A stretch of 64,000 nt of DNA from the NCBI RefSeq assembly GCF_037042905.1, contig NC_087250.1:5644001-5708000 (forward strand). The letters are read 5' to 3'. Under the pieces are notes generated by a model. That model was not told the DNA's origin, searched no databases, and saw only the letters and a list, made by a program, of their open reading frames with translations. Below are positions 5,846-61,512 of the stretch, piece by piece. The first letter of the stretch is position 1. Each line of letters opens with the position of its first letter. This stretch comes from Lytechinus pictus. Its lineage: Eukaryota. A program made the position numbers and the translations under genes.

Positions 5846-6058
5846 ATTGTGAAAGAAATGGATGAAGAGAACAATGGTAGGCGTAGCTTACATCAAGGTT
5901 CCCCAGAGCTATCTACCCTTTGGAAAAATTGGTGATGCCAATGATCCCGGCAGAGACATTTTTTCGGCATCACCAATTTTTCCAAAGGGTAGATAGCTCT
6001 GGGGAACCTTGATTTAAGCTACGCCTACCATTGTTCTCTTCATCCATTTCTTTCACAA
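5846..6058. repeat. Near-perfect hairpin, about 93-bp arms with a roughly 25-bp loop
   Basis: tgtgaaagaaatggatgaagag…gatgcc / ggcatc…ctcttcatccatttctttcaca; one internal mismatch seen. Confidence 0.9.
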
Positions 6059-12392: not shown

Positions 12393-14481
12393 CACAACAA
12401 AAAAAGTAAGTCCCCCCTTAAACAAACATCAATAATTTCCGAACCAATGCGAGTTTTTAATATATTTTTACATGGGCGTGTAGGTAATTTTATAAGCTAC
12501 CCTCTGAGTAAACGTTATGGACGTATTTCACTTCATGCTTCAGTGAGCACCGTCAGAAGGCAAAAATGTCACTTTTCAAAAGTCACAAGCCAAATATCAT
12601 GACTTTGATTCCATTTTATTGGAACTAATTCCACATTCTCATCATAAAAAGTAGTCAGAAGGCTTGTAAAAGGTACTCTCTAAAAGACGATACAACTTTT
12701 TTGGCTAAATTTCACGGTTGAATAAACACAAGTCCAAATTTGCTATAATTTGATTTTTTACACATTTATATCAATAAAAATGATAGAATATGATGACAGT
12801 TAGTTTTGGAAGAGTTTCTTCAACAATATTCATCGTTTCACGGTTCAATGAACATTTATTGAAAAAAAAATACGATGATTTTCAAATATCATAGGCGAGT
12901 ATTGGTTCATTTTGGGAACTGAAAATGATCTTTTGTCAACTTTTTCGTTATGTTCATGACCAATTAACCTGCTTCAATGATTCAAAGGCGTTTAATTAAA
13001 TATCCACGCTTGAATGAACATGTGGAATGCGTTTAGCTCTTTTTTACGTTATTGGAAAAAATGCAATTTGTTACAATGGATATCTGTCACAAACCTCCTT
13101 GCATAGTTCATTTGATTTGATTTTTATGAAAATCCCGATGTTTAATGCATCAGTGAGAACACAATATTCGAAAATTATGCAAATGAGAAGAAAGTTCAAG
13201 GCCTTGGCCCCACTCTGTGTCGTATCGAATGGTTATTTTGGTGTGCGCGCCTTTTGGATAGTGTTACTCTGAAGCCATGTACGAAGTTTCATGAAATAAC
13301 TATTGGCAGAAGTAACAAAAACCGTCCATGAAACAAACACTCATTTCATATTTGTTAAAATTTTGACTTCGTCTCTCATAGACTTGTGTACATTATGGGT
13401 GCACATGTTTAAGAATAAGTAACCCCTTATTCAATATGGTGGAACTTTTTTTCACGGCTGTCTTTAGCAATGTCATTTGGCAGTAATGTTTATCAAACTA
13501 TGGGCAGAATTCTGTGCAAAAATGAAATCGATTTGTTTATTTATGGATGAGTGAGCACGCATCAAAGTGGGAAAATTTGTATTTTCAATGTCACAGACTC
13601 ATTTTAAAGGGTAATAAAGTGAATATTGGGGGCAAATTCGGTTTCAAATAAGACTTTAATTGCTATCGTTTTTATCATCCATCATTTCTATCACCACACA
13701 CTTTCCGAACTTTAAACATTTTCATGGTTGAGCGAGCACATTCGAAAACTTAGGAATGAATACTCTTTATACTGCATAAATGTATTATTTTCCTAACAAT
13801 TTTTCATGATCAGTTTAATTTATGGACAAATCAGTGGTGGGTCCAAAATTTTTAAATGGGGGAGGGGCCTATAATCGGGGGAGCCACCAACATTTTCAAA
13901 TTTTAACATGATCTAACAAGTTGTAGAGGATACTACCATAAACCCCTATGATGATACGTCACAATACAGGGGCCGGGGAAGGGTTTTAAAAGTGGGGGGG
14001 GGGGGGCTGACCATGCAAAAAATCACAATCGTATGGTCATTTTTACATTTTTGTACATGCTTTTGGAAAAAAAGTGGGGGGAGGGGGCTGAAGCTCCCCG
14101 CCCAGCCCCCCCCCCCCCGCTTCCGCGGCCCGTGCAATACATTATGCTCACTCAACCATGAACATATTATATCAAAATTGTGTGTGGAGTGGCTAAATGA
14201 TGGATAGTAAAACAGCATAACACCATAAAATTCACCTAAAGACAACATTTGCCCAACTTTGTATTTGCACAATCTGAAAAACGACTCTTGTGACTTTCAA
14301 AAATGGTCATTTTTAATTCAATCTTTAATTACTCATGCATAACTCAACCGATCAATCTTATTTTTCCCCAGGAGTTGCTTAATGGGTGTAGAAAACCACC
14401 TACGGAATATCATATCTCAAAATATTTCCGTTCAAAAGTTACAGCAATTTGATTCAGGGGGGACTTACTTTTTTTGTTGTG
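12393..14481. mobile_element. 2.1-kb non-autonomous TA-TSD DNA transposon with a nested short element (about 13967-14134)
   Basis: TIR cacaacaaaaaaagtaagtccccc at both ends, inside (TA)n. Confidence 0.85.
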
Positions 14482-14500
14482 TATATATATATATATATAT

Positions 14501-14777
14501 GGAGCGTTGTGGCCCAGTGGATTAGTCTCCGGACTTTGAAACAGAGGGTCGTGGGTTCGAATCCCAGTCATGGCGTAATTTCCTTCGGCAAGACATTTAT
14601 CCACATTGGTCTCCACTCGACCCAGGTGAGGTGAATGGGTACCCGGTAGGATTTGTTCCTTGAACGCTTTAGCGCCTATTAATACAGCCGGGGTAATATT
14701 GTGATACCAAGTTTCAAAGTGCAGTTGAGTATATGCACATATTAACTGCGCTATATAAATGGACATATTATTAATAT

Positions 14778-23877: not shown

Positions 23878-24997
23878 CAGTCGGATCTACGGGGGGGGGG
23901 GGTATAGGACGCATTTGCCCGTATTCTTAAGTCAGGTTTAACTCAAACCATGGTCTATAACTCTGTGCAAATATTATGGAAAGCCAAATACGTCACATTT
24001 TTCCTTACATTGTATGTTTCTTACATTTACTATACACTTTCCTGGCTCGTGAATGGTGAAGAAAGCTATCTTATCTACCCTTCCGCAACAGTTAAAATGA
24101 TTTGAGAGAAAAATTACCTGACACATTGAAATTATAATGTTAGAGATTTATGTCACTATTGGCTCTCTATAGTTAAACCACAACTTTAAACCAGGGTTTA
24201 ATTTAAACCCGACTTCAGAATATGGGCCACTACGTCTCGGCTAATCGTTATTGGGTCAAACCAAATTGTCAAACCCCCCACTTAGCAGAAAGCTAGATCT
24301 GCCACTGCATGTTAATGTATTGTGAAATCAAGTGACAGTTTGAAATGTCATGATACCTTCCTTCAAATTTATATAGGAAAAGCATTGTTTATAATTTGTA
24401 TACAACTGCACTGTTTATTATAATTTTATGAACCTTTAAGTACTGTTCACTGTAAAAACGCTGTTTAAAATTAAGCGCGTCGTTTAAGCCCGTCACTCTA
24501 ACAACTACTGTTTAAACTTTTTAAACAACTGTTTGAACTTTTTAAACAAGTTGTTTAAAAAGATTAAACAATTTTAAACAAGTTTAAACAACTTGCTGTT
24601 AGAGTGACAGGCTGAAACAACGTGATATTTTTACTGTGTTGTTAAAACAGTTTCAACATGTTTAAAATCTTCAACAATAAAGTTTGATTCTTACTATTTA
24701 ATTCTCACTACATTAATTATGCATGTTTGTTTTCACCTGTTAAACTACAGGTTCATGATTAAACAGCGTTATATAAGCCTTTTCTACTGTGTAGCTCTCG
24801 ATGTTAATGAAATTCGCAGGGATATTCTTTTTTCACCCTCTTACATTAATCCAAATAAAACTCATTTCTATTTTATACGACGTATCTATGTTAAACATAT
24901 ATTAATCGATACGCGGCTGGTGTGTTTATCATTAGACTATTCTAGACATGCTTGATGTGTTTTCCGTTTTGCCCTGCTTTTATTGTAATTTTTAACT

Positions 24998-25165
24998 GTG
25001 TGTATTTGAGTTTTGTCAGACGTGTTTCAATCAGATATGATTATTTACGTCTGGGACCGACCTTTAACGTCACCATCCGAAAGACGTGACCGGGGCTCGA
25101 ACCTCTGCATCAATTTGTAACTTCCCCACAGCTTGGATTACAGGCGCACGCCACAACGCCCAGTT
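24998..25165 (-). mobile_element. SINE with a 7SL (Alu-domain)-like head, B-box and Nin/Deu-like core
   Basis: Minus strand reads AACTGGGCGTTGTGGCGTGCGCCTGTAATCCAAGCTGTGGGGAAGTT…GGTTCGAGCC…GTCTTTCGGATGGTGACGTTAAAGGTCGGTCCC; flanking repeat tttttaact at 24989-24997 and 25170-25178. Confidence 0.7.
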
Positions 25166-27479
25166 TTTTTTTTTAACTATGGACTTATATTGATTTATAT
25201 TCAGAGCCGTAGTCTTTCTTGAGGGGCGTCCTTTTTGAAGCCTTTGTGCTTATAATTGTCCCCTCCCATGCAATGATTATTTATTGTTATTTTACCGTGA
25301 AAAAAATTGGCACTATATTTTATGTTATATGATCATTTTTTTGCATGGAAATAAAGAATCAATCAATCAATCAATTGTTCTATTGAACATTTTTAATTTC
25401 TATTTGTAATTGATAAATTTTAATAAGTTATTTATTTCAGGGGACTCACATAAACGAACGATGCTTTCTTACTTTCCAGTGAGTTCCCTTTTTTCATTTC
25501 TTTTTATTCATATTCTGATCTGTTCCTACTTACTTTGTCACTTTGTTTGAAATGAAGAAGAATAAATTCAATCAATCAATAAGTAAATCATAATGGTTTT
25601 TGTTAGTCTCGGTCATGTTCGCTCATTTGGTTTACTGCTTGCCTGCTAGTATAAAGTATACTTACGCAGACCCTATTGCAAATCAAAATCAATTCAGGAC
25701 TCGATATTTACTCCCTCAAACTGTAGCTATATTATAAATATCAGTAGGCAAAGCTTTATAGTACAAGAACATTGTTACTTTCAACATTAAATGCGTTAGT
25801 TAAGTTTGTTTGGACTGTATTAATTGTTTCAAATGAAAAGGGTCTATAGGAACGGAAACTATAAACGTATAGTCACGTGACGTTGTAAACAGAAATATGC
25901 CATGCATGTTCTGCCTGCTCGATCTCAAAGTTGGGAGAAAATGAGATGTAACCATTATACCAGTCATAAAGATGTATACATCAAAATGTAGGTAATCTAT
26001 TTAGCATTGAGATGACAATCAATCTTGACCTTTTTTACCCTTAGGGATATTCCAGTCAACAAAGGTGCCTGTGTCTCGAAAATACGGGTGGTTTCAAACA
26101 GTTTGCCATAGCAAGATTTGTAAACATGGACACTTTCAAATGAACAGCGAGACGTAAATAGTTAATTAATCGTAATAATATTTACCTCAAATTAATGGAA
26201 TATGATAAAGATTTTCACACTATTATCAATCTGGTGTGAGATAATTAATAGTTATAAAGATATTCCCGGATTTCTGCAATATTACGTTCATGAAAACCAC
26301 TGTTCCCTGTGTTGAAGCTGTGTGTGTGGACTTTCGGACACTCAAATGCACGCGACTAACCATTATGCAATCAATCATCATCATCTCACTGGCATGGCCT
26401 TCATTTTCATCATTATCACCATATCCTCATTCATATCATCTCCATCTTCATCATTATAAAATTATGAACAAAAGAGCATTTCTTTTCTGCTTCATAATTT
26501 ATTTGTTCATTTATTCCGGGGTTGTCATTTTTTCAAGCAATCTGCTTATAATGACAATTCCTCTCCTGCAAACTGTAAAAATGTTTTTTTTTTTTTTGTT
26601 GGTAGTTGATCATACTTGTTTATATAGAATGACTTTTTTATTTAGTATTTTTTTATGATTCATACCAAAATTAATTACCGATATATTATGTTTGTTACGT
26701 AATGATAATTGTATTGCAAACGAATGTCATGAAAGCGGAAGAATACAATAAATCAAATCAAATATAATATAATAGGCCTACATGGGGACATGGGCATGAT
26801 ATCAAGACAGAAAGAAGAAAAAGAATTCCATGCCGATATCAAGTGCGCCCTCTATTGAAAGGTAAACACGGTATGGAGTTCTGCTTCTGCTCGAGAAATT
26901 TCTTTGGTAAGATCTGCATTTGGCCTCTGAAATAAACCGTTATTTATTAGCATTTCGTTTGAATAATGTTATTTTCCTCATTGACTGTTTGCCTTAACAC
27001 ACGTGTAAGTGCCATTGAATCAAAAGTTCGATTTATTGTAACGCAACTTATTCAAGAAAAAGCTGATGTGATCTGAGCTGCGACTTCGTAGTAAAAACAA
27101 ATCACAGTCCCATGCTATTTAAAACCGTGTCGTAATTATTGTAATGCATGAATGTAATTAAGGAGCCACAGCCTGTCCACCCAAGGGCAAGGCCAAGCCG
27201 TTCATTACATGCCGCCTCGCACAGAAAAATCAAACCATAGAAGTCGGGTGTAGTTGACATCAGAAGTGAGATCCCAGCATAGTTTATACAAACCTCGCAA
27301 TACGTGTGAGTGCCCATAGTCACTCTAGGCGACACCCCAATACTTACCCGTGCTAATAAACTGGGACTCCACTCACGCGCATTTGGGCCGCCCTAGCTTA
27401 GAACTAACTGACTAAGCAATATTATCTAGAAATTGTTACATTGTAGTCATTAAATATGTTCTATTAAATAAATTGATAA

Positions 27480-38022: not shown

Positions 38023-61512
<23,490 letters not shown>

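Follow-up and report, generated by a model that had tools for sequence, protein, structure and literature searches.

A sea urchin SINE family joining a 7SL-like 5' domain to the body of tRNA-headed SINEs

Background

SINEs that stem from 7SL RNA have been described from Euarchontoglires and from hagfish (PMC7245038; PMC5786205). A shrew mole 7SL SINE was added in 2026, and the extract of that report drawn on here records none earlier outside supraprimates and hagfish (PMC13023118). Independent origins of such elements are described as extremely rare (supraprimates, hagfish, shrew mole; passages in PMC7245038 and PMC13023118), and the rarity asserted when the locus described below was singled out agrees with these passages, which report 7SL SINEs only from some mammals and hagfish. 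In the literature published up to 2026, we found no 7SL-derived SINE from an invertebrate or an echinoderm.

According to the portions of PMC13023118 used here (Kosushkin et al. 2026), the families Alu, B1 and Tu of Euarchontoglires and Urop of the shrew mole share the 5' Alu-domain fold, with helices 2-4 and the U-turn region, and consist solely of the 5' and 3' regions of 7SL RNA after a deletion of about 183 nt. They have a 7SL-derived B box, a poly(A) end and an L1 partner. In the same portions, all the 7SL SINEs described retain the 5' and 3' regions around this central deletion of about 183 nt. The A box of human 7SL RNA is placed at positions 6-15 and the B box at positions 76-86 (excerpt of PMC7245038). 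The 46-nt 5' domain of Alu RNA is reported, in an extract of PMC12199147, to be necessary for retrotransposition, to be capable of promoting it and to associate with SRP9/14 in human cells.

Outside Euarchontoglires, a 7SL-derived 5' end is found in SINE1-1_EBu of the hagfish Eptatretus burgeri, whose origin was chimeric, from 7SL and a tRNA SINE, and which uses a non-L1 LINE (excerpts of PMC7245038, Kojima 2020). It keeps the 7SL 5' and 3' regions with a central deletion and contains bipartite RTE-derived sequences (PMC7245038). A small-RNA promoter module placed on a tRNA-headed SINE with a conserved central body is also known from the 5S-rRNA-headed Deu-SINEs (AmnSINE1, SINE3 type), as PMC4758252 outlines with reference to Nishihara et al. 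2006. The sea urchin SINEs catalogued in Repbase all bear names of the form SINE2-n_SP in the parts of PMC4824008 and PMC4758252 that mention them. SINEBase, in the rule quoted from PMC3531059, accepts a SINE on at least 60% identity to a small RNA over at least 60 nt.

Here, we analyse a SINE copy that an original prediction, made from the sequence of a single genomic stretch, had described as a chimeric element with a head like the Alu domain of SRP RNA. The stretch as a whole, 64 kb in length, is referred to as the window.

Methods

All positions of the element are given along the - strand of the window and its coordinates therefore descend. The head was compared with Rfam using cmscan, within a 361-nt sequence and again within the whole window, where both strands were scanned against 4227 Rfam families. 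The gathering score of the Metazoa_SRP model (RF00017) is 70, and the match of the head, at 31 bits, was seen through reporting by E-value. tRNA genes were searched for with ARAGORN and Rfam. Sixty-four open reading frames of the window were scanned against Pfam, which gave hits in two only.

A sequence pattern representing the body of the element was scanned across metagenome contigs and recovered three loci, designated L004, L005 and L006. For more distant copies, a 36-residue antisense open reading frame (25010-25117, + strand), which runs through the tail, body, B box and linker, was searched against 1.84 billion representative proteins.

Structure of the element

By sequence reading, the SINE copy measures about 167 nt (25164-24998, - strand) and is flanked by 9-nt direct repeats. 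The 5' copy of the target site duplication (TSD; AGTTAAAAA) lies at 25178-25170 and the 3' copy (AGTTAAAAA) at 24997-24989, and six further A's (25169-25164) separate the 5' copy from the head. When a span of 168 nt was placed at random 5000 times in the 64-kb window, 3.1% of the placements were flanked by a direct repeat of at least 9 nt; hence the TSD is supportive but not decisive alone.

The first 45 nt of the element (25164-25120) form the 7SL-like head, which is matched by RF00017. It corresponds to the 5' domain within the Alu domain of SRP RNA, with helices 2, 3 and 4 and the UGUAAU stretch. A 16-nt linker (25119-25104), which is also encoded in four of the public proteins considered below (P0001, P0002, P0003 and P0008), joins the head to a tRNA-type B box, GGTTCGAGCC, followed by GTCAC (25103-25086). 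Homology with tRNA-headed relatives starts at this point. The B box proper (25103-25094) is a perfect tRNA-type motif by motif search. Judged by motifs, the putative Pol III promoter elements consist of this B box and of a head that spans the model positions of the human 7SL A box; the element covers the A-box region of 7SL RNA and lacks its B-box region.

Downstream of the B box lies a conserved body (GTCTTTCGGATGGTGACGTTAAAGGTCGGTCCCAGACGTAAATAA; 25085-25041) common to SINE2-type relatives and near-identical in L004, L005 and L006. It overlaps a 3' stem-loop (25053-25017) in which a 7-bp stem, CAGACGT/ACGTCTG, encloses an inner hairpin. This stem-loop, read from the sequence, also belongs to the minimum-energy fold of the whole element and is a candidate recognition site for the reverse transcriptase of a partner LINE. 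The tail, ACAAAACTCAAATACACAC, occupies 25016-24998 and ends in a CA repeat (ACACAC at 24998). The tRNA-type B box and the CA-ending tail of the original prediction are accordingly both present, and the TSD, put there at 9-12 bp, has a length of 9 nt. Another tail-like stretch in the window, at 12749-12794, was rejected as an AT-rich chance similarity. The element is short (less than 1 kb), interspersed and non-tandem, with four loci in different flanks, as expected of a SINE.

Likeness of the head to 7SL RNA

Within the 361-nt sequence, the head (25164-25120) aligned with positions 1-44 of the 299 positions of Metazoa_SRP at 31.2 bits (E 1.4e-6). In the whole-window scan the match scored 31.1 bits (E 2.8e-4) and was the sole match with E below 0.001 other than those to microRNA hairpin models. 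The default Rfam scan listed no match for the head since its score lies under the gathering score of 70; this default scan found no 7SL gene in the 64-kb window either. The aligned model positions, 44 in a row, are interrupted by one inserted base, and one pair is marked as non-standard. Helices 2, 3 and 4, a closing helix of 3 bp and the UGUAAU stretch all fall within the alignment. In the whole-window scan the alignment extended nominally over model positions 1-299 (25164-25109), yet the score was 31.1 against 31.2 bits. As nothing is gained past model position 44, the 3' part of 7SL RNA is absent from the element.

These results bear out the proposed Alu-domain-like head, for which a run of Infernal with the Metazoa_SRP model had been suggested, as well as the retention of helix 3 and of the U-turn, the latter as UGUAAU in the cmscan alignment. 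The closing stem AACT/AGTT stands in part: three of its pairs occur in the Rfam alignment, and the 4-bp stem is insecure, as the six A's before the head mean that the first A's of the stem may belong to the flank.

The specificity of the match was gauged with four other SINE heads, those of L004, L005 and L006 and of a SINE at about 14500 in the window, none of which matched SRP. The predicted minimum-energy fold of the head consists of the two expected hairpins, with an energy that 416 of 500 shuffled sequences equalled or undercut. Neither Rfam, for the head, nor ARAGORN, for the entire window, reported a tRNA. The four tRNA-like control heads were likewise without a tRNA match in Rfam, and the missing match of the head therefore says little. 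On the strength of its alignment statistics and of the control heads, the likeness of the head to the 5' domain of the 7SL Alu domain is real and specific, and the head is probably of 7SL origin.

The SINE at 14500-14720 (+ strand) is a second element unrelated to the present one, with a clear tRNA-type head comprising an A box and a GGGTTCGAATCC B box. It directly follows a (TA)n run and was called a tRNA by neither ARAGORN nor Rfam. Over its first 14 nt it is similar to the beginning of the 7SL-like head, at a score that only 34 of 1000 shuffles reached; we attribute this likeness to A-box-like sequence present in both classes of RNA.

When the element is set against the definitions in use, its 5' part derives from the 5' region of 7SL RNA (RF00017 positions 1-44), as in SINE1. 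The 7SL overlap of only 45 nt falls short of the SINEBase requirement of at least 60% identity to tRNA, 5S or 7SL RNA over at least 60 nt, and its brevity could be the reason for a catalogue to leave the element out of its 7SL-derived entries.

Body and relatives

L004, L005 and L006 all have the same body, stem-loop and tail as the window element. In blastn comparisons they are 82-89% identical to it over 102-108 nt, from the B box through the tail. The terminal repeat of the tail is (CA)n or (CAAC)n in these relatives, and the 3' stem is unchanged in L005 and L006 and disrupted in L004. Upstream of the B box their heads are unrelated to that of the window element and are tRNA-like, with A-box-like and B-box motifs; the 7SL-like head occurs in none of these three metagenome DNA copies. 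The contigs come from marine or other metagenomes and, since they share the body lineage, are probably echinoid DNA inside metagenome assemblies.

The B-box half, body, 3' stem-loop and tail are therefore those of a SINE2 lineage held in common with L004-L006. The second part of a SINE1, which should derive from the 7SL 3' region, is missing, and the sequence that follows the linker is instead homologous to the tRNA-headed relatives. A head made only of the 7SL 5' domain, without the 7SL 3' part or B box, marks a chimera and not a canonical SINE1, and the body shared with tRNA-headed SINEs identifies its components as a 7SL 5' piece and a SINE2-type parent. The chimeric build claimed for the element is thus upheld, everything from the B box onward being common to tRNA-headed SINEs. 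The lineage of L004-L006 is the probable parent lineage and presumably has the same LINE partner.

The best likeness found for the linker was 9 of 10 nt in the head of L006. Equal scores were reached by 70 of 1000 shuffles, and the likeness, being not significant, was set aside as evidence for the origin of the linker. For the likeness of the body to a Nin/Deu core suggested in the original prediction, a single link emerged: the 9-nt word GACGTTAAA, shared with a bivalve Deu-domain SINE from a supplement of PMC4824008. A literature search using words from the body sequence returned unrelated primer matches only.

Further loci and host

Sequence searches, including blastn, found no second copy of the element within the 64-kb window. 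The search with the 36-residue frame returned seven matching proteins, and a search with one of them, P0001, added an eighth, P0008. Half of the eight (P0001, P0002, P0003 and P0008) read on, with frame shifts, across the linker and into the antisense-translated head. Residues 42-63 of P0001 correspond to window positions 25101-25163 at 86%, and the C-terminal 10 residues of P0002, P0003 and P0008 to positions 25131-25160 at 90% (tblastn). The other proteins, P0004-P0007, stop in the body or have other sequence upstream.

In the part derived from the SINE, P0002 and P0003 are identical (61 of 63 aligned residues), and their N-terminal flanks are unrelated; hence they represent two loci. P0003 and P0008 have a common flank (72% over 103 columns) and therefore stand for one locus in two assemblies. 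Read from translated open reading frames, the source of all the other head-bearing copies, which are without exception on contigs sourced from ENA, the head-bearing element is present at four loci including the window, in at least two sequence variants. We hold with high confidence that it belongs to a multi-copy family; the SINE family that had been proposed gains the same head and body at three further loci and is not single-copy.

Several other searches contributed no copies. The linker pattern had no match in the metagenome contigs or in the genome contigs, the B-box pattern none in viral contigs, and a longer core pattern none in either genome or viral contigs. Three viral contigs that matched the core pattern contain unrelated phage coding sequence and were dismissed as chance matches. 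A search for shorter proteins with P0001 as the query gave no match. Twenty public sequencing runs held 4-18% of the sampled words of 24700-25500, none as much as half, and were not counted as evidence; some of the low-share RNA runs among them are labelled sea urchin or echinoderm metagenome.

The host can be read from a protein-coding exon in the window. Pfam detected an exon of an aldehyde dehydrogenase (ALDH3-type) at about 53468-53794 on the + strand, in which 73 residues (53576-53794, +) are 92% identical to a dimeric NADP-preferring-like aldehyde dehydrogenase of Lytechinus variegatus, with the next matches at 52% or lower. On the basis of this identity the window belongs to an echinoid that is a near relative of L. 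variegatus or that species itself, and so to an invertebrate deuterostome, in keeping with the invertebrate-type genome that the original prediction had suggested.

Alternative explanations

Taken together, the findings are best explained by a sea urchin SINE family in which a head from the 5' end of 7SL RNA (about 45 nt) is joined through a linker to what an older tRNA-headed SINE contributed, namely its B-box half, body and tail, a reading to which we assign a probability of roughly 0.7. The observation of a chimeric family of 7SL 5' domain and tRNA SINE in a sea urchin is confirmed, and its interpretation is supported in the main points. The head might alternatively be an ordinary, diverged tRNA-derived SINE2 head that owes its 7SL likeness to A-box-type motifs and chance. 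We consider this unlikely, as the alignment with SRP comprises 44 consecutive positions including UGUAAU and helix 4, features that are absent in tRNAs, with an E value of 2.8e-4 even for the whole window over all families. None of the four tRNA-type SINE heads (0/4) matches SRP, and the spacing of the hairpins, in our reading of the cmscan alignment, is unlike that of a D arm or an anticodon arm. A diverged tRNA head would nevertheless suit the SINE2 type of the B box and of all that lies downstream, and the lack of a tRNA match is uninformative here, the tRNA-like control heads being unmatched as well. The SRP score of 31 bits is also far under the gathering score of 70 and extends over 45 nt only, and the fold of the head is not stabler than that of shuffled sequences (416/500 as low or lower). 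With the 14-nt likeness to the start of the SINE at 14500-14720 (34/1000 shuffles), this explanation is kept as a minority rival.

A second type of alternative accepts the 7SL origin of the head and disputes the family. In a single accidental chimeric retrocopy, the reverse transcriptase would have switched from a SINE RNA to 7SL RNA and no propagating family would exist, in agreement with the one copy in the 64-kb window, with the absence of the linker pattern from the scanned metagenome and genome contigs, and with a head that begins at or beside position 1 of 7SL RNA, like a template-switch product. Against this, the same head, linker and body recur in four public open reading frames in three different flanks, and two of these frames combine identical SINE parts with unrelated flanks, which is the expectation for an active source element. 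Four loci with at least two variants exclude a single template-switch accident, and we regard the one-off event as very improbable. The probability of human Alu contamination or of an assembly chimera is negligible: the Alu-derived mir-1268 model does match weakly (21.1 bits, E 0.16), but head and marine-invertebrate SINE body form one unbroken stretch between a single pair of TSDs, the same head-body junction exists in independent public assemblies, and the surrounding window is echinoid. The earlier argument against human Alu contamination is in this way strengthened by the genomic context and the further head-body copies.

Comparison with described SINEs

The sea urchin head corresponds to the 46-nt 5' Alu domain examined in the cited extract of PMC12199147. 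The element is like Alu, B1, Tu and Urop in its 5' Alu-domain fold; unlike them, it ends in a LINE-type stem-loop with a CA repeat and has no 7SL B box. Its lack of the 7SL 3' part distinguishes it from all the SINE1 elements described in the consulted text of PMC13023118. With hagfish SINE1-1_EBu it has in common a 7SL-derived 5' end outside Euarchontoglires. The hagfish element is mobilised by its non-L1 LINE via a specific 3' tail that ends in a short repeat (PMC7245038), and the sea urchin element is presumably alike in this respect. In contrast to SINE1-1_EBu, it includes only the first 45 nt or so of 7SL RNA, has a tRNA-type B box, differs in body and tail, and resides in an invertebrate.

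The 5S-headed Deu-SINEs are, going by the account in PMC4758252, the nearest structural precedent for such a swap of promoter modules, the new module taking over part of the promoter there and presumably in the sea urchin element too. In the sea urchin element, however, the module is the 7SL 5' domain, and the tRNA A-box half is gone while the B box is kept. L004-L006 are alike in body and tail and unlike in their tRNA-like heads without an SRP match. The comparison with the SINE2-n_SP elements of Repbase is by names only, and one of these could be the same family filed under tRNA.

Tentatively, and with slightly less than even odds in our view, the element would mark the fourth time that a SINE with a 7SL head was born independently, and the first such event in an invertebrate, with only the 5' domain of about 45 nt grafted onto a non-L1-dependent tRNA-type SINE.

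Proposed mechanism and implications

For transcription, LINE partner, SRP9/14 binding and route of origin, we infer the following from established SINE biology. Pol III would start at the 7SL-like 5' end, directed by a 7SL-type A box and a tRNA-type B box about 50 nt downstream. A non-L1 LINE of the stringent type may then reverse-transcribe the RNA by way of the 3' stem-loop and CA-type tail, which would yield TSDs of about 9 nt. It is probable that two hairpins form in the 7SL 5' domain and that SRP9/14 binds to it. Such binding would bring the SINE RNA to ribosomes engaged in making the LINE protein, as proposed for Alu, and would give it better access to that protein as it emerges. The chimera itself probably originated through template switching or recombination of 7SL RNA with a SINE2 RNA, comparable to hagfish SINE1-1_EBu. 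At its 5' end the element would act in the manner of a SINE1, and in its remaining parts in that of its SINE2 relatives.

An echinoid family with the 5' domain only would extend 7SL SINEs to the invertebrates and would introduce a new head design, in which the A-box half of 7SL is joined to the B-box half of a tRNA. It would also provide a natural test case for the question of whether a SINE can profit from recruitment of SRP9/14 when its LINE partner is of a stringent type other than L1. Should the head bind SRP9/14 of echinoids and increase mobility, docking to ribosomes through SRP9/14 would be a strategy of SINEs in general, whatever the LINE clade, and its natural minimal module would be the 5' domain by itself. 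Catalogues that demand likeness to a small RNA over 60 nt, as in the SINEBase rule quoted from PMC3531059, can miss heads of this kind.

Other features of the window

A Penelope-like retroelement is found at about 47066-48901 (- strand), with a 611-residue open frame encoding a reverse transcriptase and a GIY-YIG nuclease; besides the aldehyde dehydrogenase exon, this was the other frame with Pfam hits (47069-48901). This frame lies between low-complexity tracts (about 45.1-46.2 and 49.6-50.3 kb) with strong GC/AT skew. At 5871-6034, a near-perfect long palindrome matches the plant microRNA models MIR158 (52.9 bits) and MIR172 on both strands, and probably represents an inverted repeat of MITE-like type, not a microRNA gene. 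A hairpin about 0.5 kb from the SINE, at 24506-24574 (- strand), matches the mir-9449 model at 37.2 bits (E 7.5e-4; gathering score 100).
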